Shown here: in pieces, positions 5,354-63,663 of the stretch | Position numbering within the stretch: position 1 is the first letter of the stretch | Layout of the letters: every line of letters begins with the position of its first letter | Origin: Escherichia coli | GTDB lineage: Bacteria; Pseudomonadota; Gammaproteobacteria; Enterobacterales; Enterobacteriaceae | DNA: 64,000 bases | Direction: 5' to 3' (one strand) | Assembly (NCBI RefSeq): GCF_044324785.1 | Contig: NZ_CP172127.1 | Made by a program: the position numbers and the translations under genes | The notes under the pieces: generated by a model | Seen by the model: the letters and a program-made list of their open reading frames with translations, nothing else | Database searches by the model: none | Told to the model about the DNA's origin: nothing

Positions 5354-7069
5354 TTACTTCAGCGGCGAACGGTTACGATCAATGCCGTAGCGTTCGATCT
5401 CTTTATACGGCACGGTTTTTGACTGGCGCTTGCGCACATCAACCAGCGTCACACGGTCGGTACAGGAGTAGCAGGGATCAAGGCTACCGATAATTAGCGG
5501 TGCGTCAGAAACGGTATTGCCGCGCAGCATGTAACGCAGCACTGGCCAGTTGGCGTAGGTGGCGGCACGACAGCGCCAGCGGAACAATTTTTGGTTATCA
5601 CCGAGCATGCTCCAGTGCACGTCTTCACCACGTGGCGCTTCAACAAAGCCCAGCGCGAATGCGTGAGGTTTATAGCTAAAGCCTTCGGTCAGCAGTGGGG
5701 TATCTGGCATGTTGTCGAGGGCAAATTCCAGCATTGCCAGCGAATCAAACGTCTCTTTGACACGGACCATCACGCGGGAGAAGACATCGCCGCCGGTAAA
5801 GGTAAACAGCGTTTTTGGAATATTGCCGTAGTCGGCGTAGGGGTGAGCAAAGCGCAAATCACGGGCAAAACCACTGCCGCGGATCAGCGGCCCTACGGGG
5901 CTATAATCACGGGCGATTTGTCGGTCGAGAATGCCAATGCCCTGAGTGCGTTGTTCCATATTCGGCGTGGCAAGCAGCATCTCTACCAGCTCCGACACGT
6001 CGGCGCGCATCTCGCGCACTAGTTTCAGCGTTTGCAGACGTTGCTCTTTGAGAATATCGCGGCGAACACCACCAATCAGATTCAGACCGTAGGTTTTACG
6101 CGACCCGGTCAGCAATTCCGCCATCGTCATCGACTTTTCCCGCACGCGGAAAAATTGCATAAAGCCGGTATCAAAACCAACAAAATGGCAGGAGAGGCCA
6201 AGGTTGAGCAAATGACTATGCAGCCGTTCGACTTCCAGCAGAATCGAGCGAATAGTATGCGCTCGTTGCGGCACTTCAATCCCCAGTGCATTTTCAACCG
6301 AGTTGGTATAGGCCACACTGTGGGCAAAACCGCAAATCCCACACACGCGGTCGGATAAGAAGGTCACTTCGTTGTAGCCCATCCGCGTTTCTGCCAGTTT
6401 CTCCATGCCGCGATGGACATAAAACAGGCGGTAATCAGCATCGACAATTTGCTCGCCATCCACAAACAAGCGGAAGTGACCTGGTTCATCGGAGGTGATA
6501 TGCAGCGGGCCGACAGGGATCACCCGCGCATCGCTGTTGCCCTCGTTGATAAACGGATACGTTTCGGTATCAGTCGTCGGTTCTGGGCGCAGTCGATAAT
6601 CCATCGCGTCTTTGCGCAGCGGATGCATATCTTCCGGCCAGTCATCGGGCAACACCAGCCGACGCTGATCCGGCAGGCCAACCGGAATCAGCCCGTACAT
6701 ATCGCGAATTTCTCGCTCGCCCCAGACCGCGGCAGGGACGCGCGGTGTGACTGACGGAAACTCCCGACTGTCGGCATCGACCAGTGCCTTCACCACGATC
6801 CAGCATTTTTCGGCCCCTTCCATAGAAAGGGCATAATAAACCGCGTAATGACCGTTAAGTGTCCGCTCGTCGTTGCCAAACAGGACTGGAAGCCAGCCAT
6901 CATGTTGATAATAAAGATAATGCACAACGTCAGGCAGCAGATTGATTTTCACCGTAATGGTGACCTGTTCAGGCGTTTGTCGCTCTTCATCCAGCACCGC
7001 GCCGGGGAACTGCGTTTTCAGGGCGGCGAGAATCGCTTCGCCACGATTTGACGATGAATTAACGTTCAC
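5354..7069 (-). CDS. hyfG: Hydrogenase-4 large [NiFe] subunit HyfG (HycE/NuoCD-like); start codon uncertain
   Basis: ORF track gives 586 aa from the ATG at 7114; a GTG at 7067-7069 preceded by GGAG (7 nt spacer) is the better-supported start; C-terminal ...DPCYSCTDR is a NiFe-ligand motif. Confidence 0.88.
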
Positions 7070-17830: not shown

Positions 17831-17872
17831 GTCGGACGTAGGTCGGATAAGGCGTTCTTGCCGCATCCGACA
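17831..17872. repeat. REP-like palindromic element in the purC 5' region
   Basis: ggtcggataaggcgttcttgccgcatccgac has the REP signature (GGATAAGGCG...GCCGCATCC) with gtcggat/atccgac arms. Confidence 0.65.
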
Positions 17873-21784: not shown

Positions 21785-22483
21785 ATGAAACATGACCATT
21801 TTGTTGTTCAAAGCCCGGATAAACCTGCGCAACAGTTGTTACTGCTTTTCCACGGTGTCGGGGATAACCCGGTGGCAATGGGGGAAATAGGCAGCTGGTT
21901 TGCGCCGCTATTTCCTGATGCGCTGGTGGTGAGTGTCGGTGGCGCGGAGCCGAGCGGTAATCCGGCGGGGCGTCAGTGGTTTTCGGTGCAGGGTATTACG
22001 GAAGATAATCGCCAGGAGCGTGTGGATGCCATCATGCCGACGTTTATTGAAACGGTACGCTACTGGCAGAAACAGAGCGGAGTAGGGGCTAACGCCACGG
22101 CGCTAATCGGTTTCTCACAAGGCGCGATTATGGCGCTGGAGAGCATTAAAGCCGAACCGGGCCTTGCTTCGCGCGTCATTGCCTTCAACGGACGCTACGC
22201 GAGCCTGCCGGAAACCGCGTCTACAGCCACGACAATTCACTTGATTCATGGCGGTGAAGATCCGGTTATCGATCTGGCGCATGCGGTTGCGGCGCAGGAA
22301 GCGTTAATCAGTGCCGGTGGTGACGTGACGCTGGATATCGTGGAGGATTTAGGCCATGCGATCGACAATCGCAGTATGCAATTTGCCCTGGATCACTTGC
22401 GTTATACCATTCCGAAACATTATTTCGACGAAGCGCTAAGTGGCGGTAAGCCTGGCGATGATGATGTGATTGAAATGATGTAA
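21785..22483 (+). CDS. ypfH: Esterase YpfH (alpha/beta hydrolase)
   Basis: 232 aa from ATG 21785 (AGGAG RBS); GFSQG nucleophile-elbow motif. Confidence 0.92.
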   Translation: MKHDHFVVQSPDKPAQQLLLLFHGVGDNPVAMGEIGSWFAPLFPDALVVSVGGAEPSGNPAGRQWFSVQGITEDNRQERVDAIMPTFIETVRYWQKQSGVGANATALIGFSQGAIMALESIKAEPGLASRVIAFNGRYASLPETASTATTIHLIHGGEDPVIDLAHAVAAQEALISAGGDVTLDIVEDLGHAIDNRSMQFALDHLRYTIPKHYFDEALSGGKPGDDDVIEMM

Positions 22484-22494
22484 TAATAGCCGGG

Positions 22495-22558
22495 TAGGCC
22501 TGATAAGACCGTATCAGGCATCATGGCCGGATGCGGCGTTAACGCCTTATCCGGCCAC
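22495..22558. repeat. Pair of REP elements (BIME-like) between convergent ypfH and ypfN
   Basis: gtaggcctgataagaccgtatcaggc followed by ggccggatgcggcgttaacgccttatccggcc, a canonical REP sequence. Confidence 0.8.
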
Positions 22559-22563
22559 TCAGC

Positions 22564-22764
22564 TTACTTCTTCGGTTGATCCTTTTTCGGCCAGTCGTCG
22601 TCATCGTCCCACTTATCGTTGAAATCACGATGCGGGGGAAGCTCCGGCTTGTTGGCGAGAAATTTCTTATGGTCGACGCGCTTGAGATCTTTAATCACGT
22701 TCAGCAGGACGCCTACCAAAAAGACAATCACCAGAATCCACCAATATTTAGCCAGCCAGTCCAT
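22564..22764 (-). CDS. ypfN: Small membrane protein YpfN (UPF0370)
   Basis: 66 aa from ATG 22764 ([21 protein letters not shown]...) with an acidic/lysine-rich tail. Confidence 0.85.
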
Positions 22765-22791
22765 GCTTATTTCCTCTTGCAGAACCACTCA

Positions 22792-33792: not shown

Positions 33793-33824
33793 ACAAAATC
33801 CCAGATGCGCCCCTAAAAAGAGCA

Positions 33825-33873
33825 CGGACCGTCCCCTCGCCCCTCTGGGGAGAGGGTTAGGGTGAGGGGAACA
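33825..33873. repeat. GC-rich ~49 bp intergenic repeat, copy 1 (between convergent ypfG and tktB)
   Basis: cggaccgtcccctcgcccctctggggagagggttagggtgaggggaaca; internally palindromic; differs at 2 positions from the copy at 47218-47266. Confidence 0.75.
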
Positions 33874-33894
33874 TACAGCATCCGGCGATCACCA

Positions 33895-45196: not shown

Positions 45197-46033
45197 ATGG
45201 CGCACGACGAACAATGGCTCACCCCTCGACTGCAAACGGCGGCAACGCTGTGTAACCAGACGCCCGCCGCGACGGAATCTCCGCTGTGGCTGGGGGTGGA
45301 TCTGGGCACCTGCGATGTGGTGTCGATGGTTGTCGACTGCGACGGTCAGCCGGTGGCGGTATGTCTCGACTGGGCCGATGTGGTCCGCGACGGCATCGTC
45401 TGGGATTTCTTCGGTGCGGTCACCATTGTTCGTCGCCATCTCGACACCCTCGAGCAGCAATTCGGTCGCCGTTTTAGCCATGCGGCGACCTCTTTTCCTC
45501 CAGGTACGGATCCGCGTATTTCCATCAACGTGCTGGAGTCTGCCGGGCTGGAAGTGAGCCATGTGCTGGATGAGCCAACCGCAGTCGCGGATCTGCTGCA
45601 ACTGGACAACGCCGGTGTAGTGGATATCGGCGGCGGCACCACCGGCATTGCCATCGTGAAAAAGGGCAAGGTGACTTACTCGGCAGATGAAGCCACCGGC
45701 GGACATCATATCTCTCTGACTCTCGCCGGAAATCGCCGTATTTCGCTGGAAGAGGCGGAGCAGTACAAGCGCGGTCACGGTGAAGAGATTTGGCCTGCGG
45801 TGAAACCGGTGTACGAAAAAATGGCGGACATTGTCGCCCGGCATATTGAAGGGCAGGGCATTACTGATTTATGGCTGGCGGGCGGCTCTTGTATGCAACC
45901 GGGCGTGGCGGAACTGTTTCGCAAACAATTCCCGGCGTTACAGGTGCATTTACCGCAGCACAGTTTGTTTATGACCCCGCTGGCGATCGCCAGTAGCGGG
46001 CGAGAGAAAGCGGAGGGGCTATATGCAAAATGA
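45197..46033 (+). CDS. eutJ: Ethanolamine-utilisation chaperone-like ATPase EutJ (actin/Hsp70 fold)
   Basis: 278 aa; DLGTCD and VDIGGGTTG sugar-kinase/Hsp70 motifs. Confidence 0.94.
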   Translation: MAHDEQWLTPRLQTAATLCNQTPAATESPLWLGVDLGTCDVVSMVVDCDGQPVAVCLDWADVVRDGIVWDFFGAVTIVRRHLDTLEQQFGRRFSHAATSFPPGTDPRISINVLESAGLEVSHVLDEPTAVADLLQLDNAGVVDIGGGTTGIAIVKKGKVTYSADEATGGHHISLTLAGNRRISLEEAEQYKRGHGEEIWPAVKPVYEKMADIVARHIEGQGITDLWLAGGSCMQPGVAELFRKQFPALQVHLPQHSLFMTPLAIASSGREKAEGLYAK

Positions 46034-47210
46034 ATTGCAGACCGCGCTCTTTCAGGCGTTCGATACCCTGAATCTGCAACGGGTAAAAACATTTAGCGTT
46101 CCACCGGTGACGCTTTGCGGTCCGGGCGCGATGAGCAGTTGCGGGCAGCAAGCGCAAACGCGTGGGCTGAAACATCTGTTCGTGATGGCAGACAGCTTTT
46201 TGCATCAGGCGGGGATGACCGCCGGGCTGACGCGTAGCCTGGCCGTTAAAGGTATCGCCATGACGCTCTGGCCATGTCCGGTGGGCGAACCGTGCATCAC
46301 CGACGTGTGTGCAGCCGTGGCGCAGTTGCGTGAATCAGGTTGTGACGGGGTGATCGCGTTTGGCGGCGGCTCGGTGCTGGATGCGGCGAAAGCCGTGGCG
46401 TTGCTGGTGACAAACCCGGATAGCACGCTGGCAGAAATGTCAGAAACCAGCGTTCTGCAACCGCGCCTGCCGTTGATTGCCATTCCAACGACCGCCGGAA
46501 CCGGCTCTGAAACCACCAACGTAACGGTGATTATCGACGCGGTGAGCGAGCGCAAGCAGGTGTTAGCCCATGCCTCGCTGATGCCGGATGTGGCGATTCT
46601 TGACGCCGCATTGACCGAAGGTGTGCCGTCGCATGTCACGGCGATGACCGGTATCGACGCGTTAACTCATGCCATTGAAGCGTACAGCGCGCTGAACGCC
46701 ACACCGTTTACCGACAGTCTGGCGATTGGCGCTATTGCGATGATTGGCAAATCGCTGCCGAAAGCGGTGGGCTACGGTCACGACCTTGCCGCGCGCGAGA
46801 GCATGTTGCTGGCTTCATGTATGGCGGGAATGGCGTTTTCCAGTGCGGGGCTTGGGTTATGCCACGCGATGGCGCATCAGCCGGGGGCGGCGCTGCATAT
46901 TCCGCACGGTCTGGCGAACGCCATGCTACTGCCAACGGTGATGGAGTTTAACCGGATGGTCTGTCGTGATCGGTTTAGTCAGATTGGTCGGGCGCTGACA
47001 AACAAGAAAACTGACGAGCGCGAGGTAATTAGCGTGATAAGCGAGCTGATTGCGGAAGTTGGGATCAACAAGCGGCTGGCTGATGTGGGCGCAACCACCG
47101 GACATTACCGCGCATGGGCGCAGGCCGCGATGGAAGATATTTGTCTGCGCAGCAACCCGCGTACCGCCAGCCTGGAGCAGATTATTGGTCTGTATGCTGC
47201 GGCGCAATAA
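46023..47210 (+). CDS. eutG: Iron-containing alcohol dehydrogenase EutG
   Basis: 395 aa Fe-ADH-family ORF; overlaps eutJ by 11 nt. Confidence 0.94.
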   Translation: MQNELQTALFQAFDTLNLQRVKTFSVPPVTLCGPGAMSSCGQQAQTRGLKHLFVMADSFLHQAGMTAGLTRSLAVKGIAMTLWPCPVGEPCITDVCAAVAQLRESGCDGVIAFGGGSVLDAAKAVALLVTNPDSTLAEMSETSVLQPRLPLIAIPTTAGTGSETTNVTVIIDAVSERKQVLAHASLMPDVAILDAALTEGVPSHVTAMTGIDALTHAIEAYSALNATPFTDSLAIGAIAMIGKSLPKAVGYGHDLAARESMLLASCMAGMAFSSAGLGLCHAMAHQPGAALHIPHGLANAMLLPTVMEFNRMVCRDRFSQIGRALTNKKTDEREVISVISELIAEVGINKRLADVGATTGHYRAWAQAAMEDICLRSNPRTASLEQIIGLYAAAQ

Positions 47211-47217
47211 AAGTGTA

Positions 47218-47335
47218 CGGACAGTCCCCTCGCCCCTTTGGGGAGAGGGTTAGGGTGAGGGGAACAGAGTCGCGCCGGTGCAAACAATTACCCTCACCCC
47301 GGCCCCTCGGCTTCCAGAGTGAGGGAAAAACCCAC
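47218..47335. repeat. GC-rich intergenic repeat, copy 2, plus downstream inverted partial copies, between eutG and eutH
   Basis: 47218-47266 cggacagtcccctcgcccctttggggagagggttagggtgaggggaaca; 47291-47300 ccctcacccc is the reverse complement of the gggtgagggg core, and gagtgaggg recurs at ~47318. Confidence 0.75.
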
Positions 47336-47379
47336 TTTCAGCATTGGCAATAAATAACAACTAACAGGGAGTAAAGGTG

Positions 47380-48606
47380 ATGGGAATTAACGAAATCATC
47401 ATGTACATCATGATGTTCTTTATGCTGATAGCTGCCGTAGACAGGATCCTGTCGCAGTTCGGTGGTTCTGCTCGTTTCCTCGGTAAGTTCGGTAAAAGTA
47501 TCGAAGGATCAGGCGGTCAGTTCGAAGAAGGCTTTATGGCAATGGGCGCACTGGGCCTGGCGATGGTTGGTATGACCGCGCTGGCACCGGTACTGGCCCA
47601 CGTACTCGGGCCGGTGATTATCCCGGTTTACGAAATGCTCGGCGCAAACCCGTCAATGTTCGCCGGAACACTGCTGGCGTGCGATATGGGCGGCTTCTTC
47701 CTCGCCAAAGAGCTGGCGGGCGGCGACGTAGCAGCGTGGCTATACTCTGGGTTAATTCTCGGGTCGATGATGGGGCCAACGATTGTGTTTTCCATTCCGG
47801 TGGCGCTCGGCATTATCGAACCTTCTGACCGTCGTTATCTGGCGCTCGGCGTGCTGGCGGGCATTGTGACCATTCCAATTGGTTGTATCGCCGGTGGCCT
47901 GGTGGCTATGTACTCCGGTGTACAGATCAACGGCCAGCCGGTGGAATTCACCTTTGCGCTTATCCTGATGAACATGATCCCGGTACTTATCGTCGCGGTA
48001 CTGGTGGCGCTGGGGCTGAAATTCATCCCGGAAAAAATGATCAACGGCTTCCAGATCTTCGCCAAATTCCTCGTTGCATTGATCACCCTCGGTCTTGCTG
48101 CCGCGGTAGTGAAATTCCTGCTTGGCTGGGAACTGATCCCCGGTCTGGATCCTATCTTTATGGCCCCTGGCGATAAACCCGGTGAAGTGATGCGCGCCAT
48201 TGAAGTTATCGGTTCTATCTCCTGCGTTCTGTTAGGGGCGTACCCGATGGTACTGCTGCTGACTCGCTGGTTTGAAAAACCGCTGATGAGCGTCGGTAAG
48301 GTGCTGAATATGAACAATATCGCGGCAGCTGGCATGGTGGCAACGCTTGCCAACAACATCCCAATGTTTGGCATGATGAAGCTGATGGATACCCGCGGCA
48401 AAGTCATCAACTGCGCCTTCGCCGTTTCCGCTGCTTTCGCCCTGGGTGACCACTTAGGCTTCGCCGCTGCCAACATGAACGCCATGATTTTCCCGATGAT
48501 TGTCGGCAAATTGATCGGCGGCGTAACGGCGATTGGCGTGGCGATGATGCTGGTGCCAAAAGAAGACGCGACCGCGGCTAAAACCGAAGCGGAGGCACAA
48601 TCGTGA
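47380..48606 (+). CDS. eutH: Ethanolamine permease/facilitator EutH
   Basis: 408 aa polytopic membrane protein from ATG 47380 (GGGAG RBS). Confidence 0.94.
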   Translation: MGINEIIMYIMMFFMLIAAVDRILSQFGGSARFLGKFGKSIEGSGGQFEEGFMAMGALGLAMVGMTALAPVLAHVLGPVIIPVYEMLGANPSMFAGTLLACDMGGFFLAKELAGGDVAAWLYSGLILGSMMGPTIVFSIPVALGIIEPSDRRYLALGVLAGIVTIPIGCIAGGLVAMYSGVQINGQPVEFTFALILMNMIPVLIVAVLVALGLKFIPEKMINGFQIFAKFLVALITLGLAAAVVKFLLGWELIPGLDPIFMAPGDKPGEVMRAIEVIGSISCVLLGAYPMVLLLTRWFEKPLMSVGKVLNMNNIAAAGMVATLANNIPMFGMMKLMDTRGKVINCAFAVSAAFALGDHLGFAAANMNAMIFPMIVGKLIGGVTAIGVAMMLVPKEDATAAKTEAEAQS

Positions 48607-50006
48607 ACACTCGCCAGCTACTGAGCGTCGGTATCGATATCGGCACCACCACCACCCAGGTGATCTTCTCCCACCTGGAACTGGTTAACCGTGCGGCGGT
48701 GTCGCAGGTGCCGCGCTACGAATTCATCAAACGCGAAATTAGCTGGCAAAGCCCGGTGTTCTTTACCCCTGTCGATAAACAGGGTGGTTTAAAAGAAGCG
48801 GAACTGAAATCGCTGATTTTAGAGCAATATCAGGCTGCGGGCATTGCGCCGGAAAGCGTTGATTCTGGTGCCATCATCATCACCGGTGAAAGCGCGAAAA
48901 CCCGCAACGCTCGCCCGGCGGTGATGACGCTCTCCCAGTCGCTGGGCGATTTTGTCGTCGCCAGCGCCGGGCCGCATCTCGAATCCGTGATCGCCGGTCA
49001 CGGTGCCGGGGCGCAAACCCTTTCTGAACAACGGCTGTGTCGGGTACTGAATATCGACATCGGCGGTGGCACCGCGAACTACGCCCTGTTCGATGCCGGA
49101 AAAATCAGCGGCACTGCCTGCCTCAACGTTGGCGGTCGCCTGCTGGAAACCGACAGCCAGGGGCGCGTGGTTTACGCTCATATACCGGGGCAGATGATTG
49201 TGGATGAGTGCTTCGGTGCAGGCACTGACGCCCGTTCGCTGACCGGCACGCAGTTGGTGCAGGTTACCCGGCGGATGGCAGAACTGATTGTCGAAGTGAT
49301 TGACGGAACGCTCTCGCCGCTCGCGCAGGCATTGATGCAAACCGGTTTGTTGCCCGCAGGTGTTACGCCCGAAATCATTACGCTTTCTGGCGGCGTGGGC
49401 GAATGTTATCGCCACCAGCCCGCCGACCCGTTCTGTTTTGCCGATATCGGCCCGCTTCTGGCAACGGCGCTGCATGACCATCAGCGCCTGCGTGAGATGA
49501 ACGTGCAGTTTCCAGCGCAAACCGTGCGCGCCACGGTGATTGGCGCGGGCGCACATACCCTTTCGCTCTCTGGCAGCACAATCTGGCTGGAGGGCGTACA
49601 ACTGCCGCTGCGCAATTTGCCGGTGGCGATCCCAATTGATGAAACGGATCTGGTGAGTGCCTGGCAACAGGCGCTGATTCAGCTGGATCTTTGCCCCAAA
49701 ACTGACGCGTACGTGCTGGCGCTTCCCGCCTCGCTGCCTGTGCGTTACGCCGCGGTACTGACGGTCATCAACGCGCTGGTCGATTTCGTCGCGCGTTTTC
49801 CGAATCCGCATCCCCTGCTGGTGGTGGCCGGGCAGGACTTTGGTAAAGCTCTGGGCATGTTGTTGCGCCCACAGCTACAACAACTCCCGTTGGCAGTCAT
49901 TGACGAAGTGATTGTCCGCGCGGGGGACTATATCGACATTGGTACGCCTCTTTTTGGCGGATCGGTTGTGCCGGTGACGGTGAAATCACTCGCATTTCCT
50001 TCCTGA
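48603..50006 (+). CDS. eutA: Ethanolamine ammonia-lyase reactivase EutA
   Basis: 467 aa, GTG start overlapping the eutH stop (GTGA). Confidence 0.94.
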   Translation: MNTRQLLSVGIDIGTTTTQVIFSHLELVNRAAVSQVPRYEFIKREISWQSPVFFTPVDKQGGLKEAELKSLILEQYQAAGIAPESVDSGAIIITGESAKTRNARPAVMTLSQSLGDFVVASAGPHLESVIAGHGAGAQTLSEQRLCRVLNIDIGGGTANYALFDAGKISGTACLNVGGRLLETDSQGRVVYAHIPGQMIVDECFGAGTDARSLTGTQLVQVTRRMAELIVEVIDGTLSPLAQALMQTGLLPAGVTPEIITLSGGVGECYRHQPADPFCFADIGPLLATALHDHQRLREMNVQFPAQTVRATVIGAGAHTLSLSGSTIWLEGVQLPLRNLPVAIPIDETDLVSAWQQALIQLDLCPKTDAYVLALPASLPVRYAAVLTVINALVDFVARFPNPHPLLVVAGQDFGKALGMLLRPQLQQLPLAVIDEVIVRAGDYIDIGTPLFGGSVVPVTVKSLAFPS

Positions 50007-53511: not shown

Positions 53512-54564
53512 ATGAAAAAGACCCGTACAGCCAATTTGCACCATCTTTATCATGAACCCTTACCCGAAAACCTGAAGCTCACGCCGAAGGTCGAAGTGGA
53601 TAATGTTCATCAACGACAGACAACGGATGTCTATGAACATGCTTTGACAATTACCGCCTGGCAGCAGATTTACGATCAGCTGCATCCGGGCAAGTTTCAT
53701 GGTGAATTTACGGAAATTCTACTCGATGATATTCAGGTTTTTCGTGAATACACCGGTCTGGCGCTGCGTCAGTCGTGCCTGGTCTGGCCGAACTCGTTCT
53801 GGTTTGGCATTCCGGCGACGCGCGGTGAGCAGGGATTTATCGGTTCGCAATGTCTGGGAAGTGCAGAAATAGCCACGCGGCCTGGCGGCACTGAGTTTGA
53901 ATTGAGTACGCCGGACGATTACACCATCCTTGGCGTGGTGCTTTCTGAAGATGTCATTACCCGGCAGGCTAACTTTTTGCATAACCCGGAGCGGGTGTTG
54001 CATATGTTGCGTCACCAGTCGGCGCTGGAAGTGAAAGAGCAGCATAAAGCCGCGCTGTGGGGCTTTGTCCAACAGGCGCTGGCGACGTTTTGCGAGAACC
54101 CGGAAAATCTCCATCAGCCTGCAGTGCGAAAAGTGTTGGGGGATAATTTGCTCATGGCGATGGGGGCGATGCTGGAAGAAGCGCAACCAATGGTGACGGC
54201 GGAAAGCATCAGTCATCAGAGTTACCGTAGATTACTTTCCCGCGCCCGTGAATATGTGCTGGAAAATATGTCTGAGCCGGTGACGGTGCTGGACTTGTGT
54301 AATCAACTGCATGTCAGTCGCCGCACGCTACAAAACGCGTTTCACGCTATTTTAGGCATTGGCCCGAACGCGTGGCTGAAACGCATTCGCCTGAACGCCG
54401 TACGCCGCGAACTGATAAGCCCGTGGTCGCAAAGCACAACGGTAAAAGACGCCGCCATGCAGTGGGGATTCTGGCATCTGGGGCAATTCGCCACGGATTA
54501 CCAGCAGCTGTTTGCCGAGAAGCCGTCACTGACGCTGCATCAGCGGATGCGGGAATGGGGGTGA
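53512..54564 (+). CDS. eutR: AraC-family transcriptional activator EutR
   Basis: 350 aa with a C-terminal AraC-type HTH; last gene of the eut cluster. Confidence 0.94.
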
Positions 54565-59068: not shown

Positions 59069-59107
59069 AAAGGCCAGCCAGTAACACAACTGACTGGCCT
59101 TTTTATT
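59069..59107 (+). terminator. Intrinsic terminator of yfeX
   Basis: Hairpin aggccagccag-N8-ctgactggcct (one mismatch) followed by TTTTT. Confidence 0.7.
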
Positions 59108-59227
59108 ACTGCTTTAACGCCGCATACACTTGATCAACTACTTTCTGTCAGAACAGGGTATTTTGCGGCGCTGACGCTACAACTAACAGCCAGCAGAGAA
59201 AGATAGAGCATTGTCCGTTTCATATTA

Positions 59228-63505: not shown

Positions 63506-63538
63506 TCCTCCCTGCATTTGTGGGGAGGATTTCGTCTT
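63506..63538 (+). terminator. Probable intrinsic terminator of ucpA
   Basis: Hairpin tcctccc-N10-gggagga followed by a T-rich tract (tttcgtctt). Confidence 0.5.
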
Positions 63539-63663
63539 GAACCCGGTTCTTATTCCCTTTTCAACTTCCAAATCACCAAACGGTATATAAAACCGTTACT
63601 CCTTTCACGTCCGTTATAAATATGATGGCTATTAGAAAGTCATTAAATTTATAAGGGTGCGCA

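Follow-up and report, generated by a model that had tools for sequence, protein, structure and literature searches.

The DNA analysed here, hereafter the window, is a stretch of 64,000 nucleotides from Escherichia coli that is 97.4% identical to K-12 across its first 47 kb, and it carries the eut operon on the + strand in the order eutS to eutR. The eutG gene is an open reading frame at 46023-47210 in the list of open reading frames; it encodes a full-length EutG that shares 94% identity with its K-12 counterpart. Strain N3 (NZ_CP031609), 99.5% identical to the window over 47000-47600, has its eutH ATG annotated in RefSeq at the equivalent of position 47380, so the spacer between the two genes runs from 47211 to 47379 and measures 169 bp; an earlier note on this DNA had made it 166 bp long. 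The operon is uninterrupted at the eutA-eutB junction, the cryptic prophage CPZ-55 (6.8 kb), which splits eutA from eutB in K-12, being absent at about 49999-50006. Elsewhere in the window, around 59100-59141, about 1.4 kb of K-12 sequence, mainly yfeW (PBP4B), is missing and about 40 bp stand in its place, and a K-12-only segment of about 128 bp is missing near 63537-63542 in the cysP-ucpA spacer. The hyfG gene on the - strand has an in-frame 48-bp insertion at 5861-5908, within a segment of about 500 bp (5600-6100) that is 82-85% identical to K-12, and its open reading frame spans 586 aa against an annotated K-12 coding sequence of 1,668 bp (about 555 aa). REP sequences, arranged as an inverted-repeat pair, lie at 22300-22770 and 17841-17869, with small indels relative to K-12.

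Within the eutG-eutH spacer lies a repeat. The earlier note had reported a 49 bp element at 47218-47266 that recurs at 33825-33873, and the two copies indeed differ at only 2 of the 49 positions; the direct repeat is in fact longer, with 54 of 58 bases (93% identity) agreeing between 47209-47266 and 33816-33873. The repeat's 22-mer core, GGGAGAGGGTTAGGGTGAGGGG, is present two times in the window, where shuffled sequence gives an expectation of 0.00; the 9-mer GGGTGAGGG, counted together with its complement, is found four times where 0.37 would be expected. Three of these four occurrences fall at the eutG-eutH locus and at the second locus near 33.8 kb; the fourth, at 54559, was considered as a further member of the family described below and rejected, being a lone 9-mer at the eutR end. 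The reverse-complement partial copies that had also been noticed are present, ccctcacccc at 47291-47300 and gagtgaggg at 47317-47325, and the arm at 47253-47264 is 92% complementary to 47288-47299. Repeat and fold analysis together uphold the description of a composite GC-rich repeat inside the eut polycistron, whose two halves are mutually inverted.

The family was identified by a full-text literature search with the exact core sequence, which led to two papers in Nucleic Acids Research (PMC4666352, PMC5100583). Holder et al. (2015) named the element TMECO and equated it with the palindromic repeat known in the 1990s as "BoxC" and with what Hoyne and Maher had called "PIT" elements (PMC4666352). 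Kaplan et al. (2016) rediscovered the same element as the G-quadruplex motifs HPG1/HPG2 (PMC5100583), and an independent survey describes BoxC as a 56-bp E. coli family with 32 copies (PMC2267715). HPGQ is a further published name of the element. The published TMECO consensus, 5'-CCCTCNCCC N3-6 GGGNGAGGG N3 GGGNGAGGG-3' (Holder 2015, PMC4666352), was run as a regular expression over the window and matched at only two places, 47227-47261 and 33834-33868, each time in + orientation. K-12 TMECO numbers 7, 11, and 15 (Table 1, PMC4666352) have exactly the sequence of the first match, and K-12 numbers 9, 16, 19, and 22 that of the second; those K-12 copies and both window matches are all of "type A", with one mismatched position. 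Inverted arrangements of two copies are reported from five K-12 loci, where they always combine a type A copy (loop TTA) with a type B copy (loop CCG) (PMC4666352). Both BoxC copies in the window are intergenic, as are the copies at five other loci.

We searched 5,426 complete E. coli genomes with a sensitive method, using 47205-47340 as the query, and found matching places in 5,425 of them, with a median of 16 per genome. The whole stretch 47217-47334 has a counterpart at cca-bacA (84% identity) and another at mrcB-hrpB (74% identity), and gcvP-ygfF holds a partial copy (query positions 5-101, 87% identity). The composite of about 120 bp recurs at cca-bacA, gcvP-ygfF, fepB-entC, alx-sstT, and mrcB-hrpB, and an end-to-end alignment of seven composites, drawn from six loci, has a mean column identity of 81%. 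Their shared layout is a left extension, a type A module, a conserved linker, a type B module in reverse complement, and finally GAAAAC. In the phage collection the composite has three hits, all partial; in the plasmid collection it has few, mostly partial as well, and those that are full length come from chromosome-sized records.

Aligned with the other composites, the eutG-eutH copy is truncated on its left side and its second hairpin is eroded (Table 1). Homology to the repeat family starts at 47209, inside the eutG stop codon, and the left extension is shorter than in the other copies, which run on leftwards as (T)CAGATGACAAAGTAC; the longer extensions are found at gcvP-ygfF, alx-sstT, and fepB-entC. 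The hairpin of the type A module has a central G.A mismatch that is conserved across the BoxC family ("type A mm"). The right module reads CCCTCACCCC GG CCCCTCGGC TTCCA GAGTGAGGG on the + strand and ...CCGAGGGG-CCG-GGGTGAGGGT on the - strand, and its arm at 47291-47299 is complementary to 47253-47261. It retains the CCG loop and the outer arm GGGTGAGGG. The hairpin arms have eroded, and a search with the TMECO consensus misses the module even with two substitutions permitted in the 21-nt G-arm portion; the module is best read, from its alignment, as a decayed type B module. The element between eutG and eutH is a BoxC family repeat of about 120 bp, best read as an inverted pair of a type A module and this decayed type B module. 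It is apparently a previously undescribed locus of a well-known family. The copy is missing from the 23 K-12 copies because K-12 has BIMEs at that locus, and the 63 loci of Holder et al. are given without gene names.

Table 1. Features of the eutG-eutH spacer, and the second BoxC copy in the window (positions count from the first letter of the window)
Feature	Positions	Strand	Basis or remark
eutG stop codon, TAA	47208-47210	+	Open reading frame and RefSeq eutG annotation in strain N3
Left extension of the BoxC unit, AAAAGTGTACGGACAGT	47209-47225	+	Aligned to the left flanks of six other composites and to the second window copy
BoxC / TMECO type A module	47226-47262	+	Published strict consensus, match 47227-47261
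C-arm of the type A module, CCCCTCGCCCC	47226-47236	+	Followed by loop TTT
G-arm 1 of the type A module, GGGGAGAGGG	47240-47249	+	Followed by loop TTA
G-arm 2 of the type A module, GGGTGAGGGG	47253-47262	+	
Central linker of the composite, AACAGAGTCGCGCCGGTGCAAACAATTA	47263-47290	+	Conserved at cca-bacA, gcvP-ygfF, fepB-entC, and alx-sstT
Probable decayed type B BoxC module, inverted	47291-47325	-	Column-wise alignment with six intact type B modules
Right end of the composite, AAAAACC (family consensus GAAAAC)	47326-47332	+	Alignment; similarity between copies stops here
CAGCATTGGCAAT, probable remnant of the REP/BIME 3' tail GCATCCGCCAAT	47339-47351	+	Sequence similarity to BIME alleles
Conserved eutH leader, CAATAAATAACAACTAACAGGGAGTAAAGG, common to all Escherichia alleles	47348-47379	+	K-12 homology resumes at 47348
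Shine-Dalgarno sequence GGGAG in the eutH leader	47367-47371	+	
Solo type A BoxC copy and its left extension, in the spacer between convergent ypfG and tktB	33800-33875	+	TMECO match 33834-33868

The same junction is held by another kind of repeat in most strains. The BoxC pair is present at eutG-eutH in 305 of the 5,426 complete E. coli genomes (about 5.6%), and about 94% of the genomes have REP/BIME arrays of one to five 100-bp units there instead; E. whittamii, Escherichia sp. E1V33, and Escherichia sp. MOD1-EC7003 also have BIMEs at this point, and with these three included the range is 1-6 units. REPs tend to accumulate just 3' of stop codons. A scan of the genome collection for EutH yielded 48 loci with a measurable eutG-eutH spacer, of which the 26 longest measure 60-578 bp. 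Among the loci whose spacer sequence was inspected, that of one Salmonella holds a single REP, which is a homologue of the first REP in E. coli, and Citrobacter and Klebsiella have REP types of their own; the point just past the eutG stop codon bears genus-specific REP types in Escherichia, Salmonella, Citrobacter, and Klebsiella. An empty spacer of 27-32 bp is found at eight Enterobacteriaceae loci (several Citrobacter, Yokenella, and a Pluralibacter MAG), and spacers of 34-48 bp occur in Hafnia, Morganella, Buttiauxella, Entomohabitans, Pluralibacter gergoviae, and one record labelled Klebsiella sp. Where there is an insert, it always lies between the eutG stop codon and the conserved eutH leader. 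One metagenome bin labelled Citrobacter sp. (DXKH01000140.1) encodes an EutH 100% identical to that of the window, and its spacer is of the E. coli type with a single BIME; this contig probably belongs to Escherichia and bears the wrong label.

The REP palindrome itself (GCCGGATGCG...CTTATCCGGCCTAC, in alternating orientation) is absent from the spacer of the window, where only the tail-like CAGCATTGGCAAT is found, and this likely remnant agrees with the REP tail at only 9-10 of 11-12 bases. Because about 94% of E. coli and the three other Escherichia have REP/BIME at this site, and because of the likely remnant, the BoxC pair appears to be derived and to have replaced a BIME. Three outgroup species and a remnant of 13 nt indicate the direction, with the BIME probably ancestral in Escherichia and the BoxC pair a later arrival. 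The eutG-eutH element is also an ordinary one, since it sits where most E. coli have REP/BIME. The 7-bp direct repeat CAATAAA (47205-47211 and 47348-47354) was considered as a target-site duplication and rejected because it flanks the BIME allele too; as evidence of transposition it is further weakened by the fact that its left copy is the constrained end of eutG.

REP and BoxC alleles also alternate at other loci. At ypfG-tktB, the locus of the solo copy in the window, K-12 and two other allele classes, and with them most E. coli, have REPs in place of BoxC, and the BoxC allele was found in 5 of the 29 rows of an evenly spaced sample. The REP alleles there carry 1-3 tandem copies of the tail CAGCATCCGGCG, and the BoxC allele keeps one clear copy of it at 33876-33887, beside the BoxC element and in the same position that CAGCATTGGCAAT has at eutG-eutH. 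A reading in which this BoxC copy is nested within a REP, with CCCAGATGCG (33800-33809) and GCATCCGGCG as the REP arms, was tried as well: its left half was rejected because CAGATG(AC) belongs to the BoxC left extension, as seen at gcvP-ygfF and alx-sstT, and the right tail stands. At cca-bacA a BoxC pair is present in 1,260 genomes, against three REPs in K-12 and a single REP in another strain. One alx-sstT allele has an internal deletion that merges the BoxC pair into a single hairpin, matching a description by Holder et al., and another has an unrelated GC-rich insert of about 400 bp instead of the pair; the alternative allele at gcvP-ygfF is without both the BoxC pair and ygfF. Non-homologous alternative alleles are present at all five of the BoxC loci examined, and REP/BoxC alternation at three of the five (eutG-eutH, ypfG-tktB, and cca-bacA). 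The REP-tail-like remnants beside BoxC are clear at ypfG-tktB and degenerate at eutG-eutH and cca-bacA. Holder et al. describe TMECO loci as hypervariable and leave replacement by REPs unmentioned (PMC4666352).

On the sense strand the eutG-eutH composite is predicted to fold into one long imperfect hairpin of -51.4 kcal/mol (z = -1.9), 26 kcal/mol weaker than the intact gcvP-ygfF copy at -77.8 kcal/mol (z = -6.1); for the BIME spacers the predicted energies are -44.4 kcal/mol at 116 nt and -93.5 kcal/mol at 216 nt. The long RNA stem that had been proposed from the sequence is therefore predicted to form, though its energy is not exceptional against dinucleotide shuffles (z = -1.6 to -1.9). 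Motif scans of 47211-47379 found neither a hairpin-plus-U-tract terminator nor a sigma-70 promoter motif; the only terminator-like candidate, a weak palindrome, falls within eutH at 47397-47415, and 3' of the stem the sense strand has A-runs without a U-tract. An Rfam scan of the whole window at gathering score returned nothing, and a permissive scan of the spacer reached at best 17-19 bits, for unrelated families with thresholds of 40-94. Among 28 base pairs compared in seven family copies, none was altered on both sides in a compensatory manner, the paired cells amount to 90% against a shuffled mean of 89.9%, and the G.A non-pair in helix 1 is conserved. Type A copies between co-directional K-12 genes show no strand preference, since 3 are sense and 6 antisense (counted from Table 1 of Kaplan et al., PMC5100583). 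As for transcription, Hoyne and Maher (2002) found PIT elements to be without promoter or terminator activity and without effect on RNA polymerase, as summarised by Holder et al. (2015; PMC4666352). BoxC copies do occur within K-12 operons, at pstA-pstB and yihS-yihR (Table 1, PMC5100583), and a terminator role for such copies has been offered as speculation (PMC5100583).

Because there is no match to a terminator, a promoter, or Rfam in these scans, no compensatory change, and no strand preference, and because the family is inactive in published work, we favour passive carriage. The BoxC pair would be a derived replacement of a BIME and a passively carried non-coding repeat, acting at most as a REP-like barrier to mRNA decay, a reading to which we give a probability of roughly 0.6. 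In this account a REP/BIME array would have stood ancestrally just 3' of the eutG stop codon, to be displaced by the BoxC pair in a minority of E. coli; a short remnant of the REP tail would have stayed behind, and the copy would since have eroded. RNA polymerase most likely reads through the pair, and the eut mRNA is predicted to fold there into the long imperfect hairpin. By analogy with REPs, which Newbury and colleagues reportedly showed in 1987 to shield upstream mRNA from 3' exonucleases, this hairpin may present a small barrier to 3'-to-5' exonucleases and so favour the upstream eutS-eutG segment, and the pair as a whole would form an untranslated gap ahead of eutH. Differential mRNA stability between the two parts of the operon, which the earlier note had also raised, is possible in the same way, by analogy with the REP/BIME arrays of other strains. 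On the best explanation, then, the BoxC pair would be neither a terminator nor a dedicated regulator.

Perhaps the main effect of the element is instead at the level of DNA, with the G-rich and C-rich arms forming, during replication or transcription, a transient triplex, G-quadruplex, or cruciform that leads to fork stalling, rearrangement, and recombination, and so to a hypervariable locus. Sequences identical to these are reported to adopt a single-strand purine-motif triplex or a G-quadruplex in vitro (PMC4666352, PMC5100583). The triplex is stable in vitro and stops polymerase in primer extension, sequence variability is elevated around TMECO loci in 56 strains (PMC4666352), and circular dichroism points to a switch between G-quadruplex and hairpin (PMC5100583); in vivo DMS footprinting, however, gave no sign of a stable triplex (PMC4666352). 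At the locus itself, the last ~290 bp of eutG (window 46926-47198) are 81-90% identical among the Escherichia alleles examined, against 91-99.5% in mid-eutG and 94-98% in eutH, and the version found in the window is common only to strain N3 among those alleles. EutG stays intact, and its substitutions cluster in residues 316-388. Between the window and strain elppa5 (NZ_CP083503) the spacer is identical at 168 of 169 positions, and the eutG 3' ends differ by 17%. This pattern and the non-homologous alternative alleles at every BoxC locus examined are in favour of an effect on DNA. The eutG 3' end is, however, equally variable among strains with the BIME allele, so BoxC need not be its cause, and a permissive site may alone explain the variability. 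We consider it unlikely that such an effect is the main one, and it is compatible with passive carriage rather than exclusive of it; the role in local instability suggested by Holder et al. fits the variable end of eutG, which falls short of demonstrating it.

A second alternative is that the hairpin works as an attenuator or processing site inside the operon, where partial termination or RNase cleavage would set the levels of eutS-eutG and eutHABCLKR apart. The long stable stem predicted in the sense RNA, the 169 nt of untranslated spacer, the structured REP/BIME at the same position in most Enterobacteriaceae examined, and the speculation on intra-operon copies (PMC5100583) give it some appeal. 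Against these stand the lack of a U-tract behind any stem, the terminator-like hits being confined to the weak palindrome inside eutH, and the inactivity of PIT/BoxC as terminator or promoter in the summary of PMC4666352; moreover the copy has eroded with no compensatory changes, and several Citrobacter, Yokenella, and the Pluralibacter MAG have only 27-32 bp here. We hold this alternative to be improbable, and the partial termination or processing suggested in the earlier note is unsupported (no U-tract, no promoter motif) and partly contradicted by the published tests of the family, as far as the Holder summary reports them.

It is also conceivable that selection calls for some strong RNA structure past the eutG stop codon, and that the BoxC pair is a convergent, functional substitute for the BIME. 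In its favour, the spacers inspected have genus-specific REP types at the same point in four genera, the longest spacers in the 48-locus set extend to several hundred bp, and the predicted BoxC fold (-51 kcal/mol) is close to that of a one-unit BIME spacer (-44 kcal/mol). Yet eight Enterobacteriaceae loci do with an empty spacer and more distant genera with 34-48 bp, the BIME copy number ranges from 1 to 6 with no apparent constraint, and the BoxC copy has been permitted to decay, all of which makes such selection very unlikely. A chance resemblance between GC-rich low-complexity sequences, with no true repeat, could draw on the modest z-scores of the fold but is already refuted by the twice-occurring 22-mer core where none was expected, the 58-nt match at 93% identity, the identity of the left module to published K-12 copies, and the full-length alignment with six other composites.

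At present the locus has little consequence for eut biology. The BoxC family has been known since the 1990s and studied three times, and its function has not been found; correct identification of the present copy guards against misreading it as a novel riboregulator or terminator. Researchers on repeats might take an interest in a junction held by different palindromic families according to lineage, and in BoxC and REP/BIME as alternating alleles at several loci. The natural allele series at eutG-eutH (empty, 1-6 BIME units, BoxC pair) is ready material on how repeats bear on operon expression. A bolder pair of linked ideas, which we rate as quite doubtful, is that BoxC spreads by invading or converting sites held by REP/BIME, and that the point after eutG is a landing pad favouring strong RNA structure. 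If true, the invasion of REP sites would give the orphan BoxC family a propagation route tied to REPs, and with the landing pad, repeats of different families could interchangeably separate the upstream and downstream halves of the eut operon in mRNA stability or translation.

Several known systems resemble the element in part. Like an intrinsic (Rho-independent) terminator, it has a GC-rich stem 3' of a stop codon; its stem differs in having no U-tract and in being followed by A-runs on the sense strand, and the family was without terminator activity in the published tests as relayed in PMC4666352. Its nearest relatives are the BoxC/PIT (Hoyne et al. 2000; Hoyne and Maher 2002)/TMECO/HPG1/HPG2 repeats, which are likewise intergenic and multi-copy: the left module is an exact fit to the consensus and has the same sequence as K-12 copies, its type A is paired with a probable type B on the opposite strand as at five K-12 loci, and eutG-eutH is hypervariable between strains, as is reported for the family. 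It departs from them in that its presumed type B half is decayed and fails the consensus, that its left extension is cut off at the eutG stop codon, and that it lies inside a long operon, a rare situation with precedents at pstA-pstB and yihS-yihR.

With MITEs such as ERIC/IRU the composite shares a length of about 120 bp, inverted ends, the absence of coding sequence, a dispersed distribution, and presence/absence polymorphism. It differs from them in that the CAATAAA repeat of 7 bp flanks the BoxC insert and the BIME allele alike, that the alternative alleles are replacements or deletions without clean empty sites, and that BoxC is nearly absent from the phage collection and has few, mostly partial, plasmid matches; to our knowledge, unlike MITEs, the composite has no cognate transposase. 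From REP/BIME (PU) repeats it differs in sequence, the two being unrelated save for the likely REP-tail remnant of 11-13 nt, and in its potential to form a triplex or G-quadruplex, which BoxC has because of its three arms. We know of no RAYT-type transposase or protein partner for BoxC, nor, unlike REP, of any mRNA-stabilising activity. In other respects the BoxC pair and the REP/BIME arrays are much alike, since both are GC-rich, palindromic, transcribed, and non-coding, have comparable predicted RNA stability, and occupy the identical position just past eutG, the arrays in about 94% of E. coli, in other Escherichia, and in Salmonella, Citrobacter, and Klebsiella.
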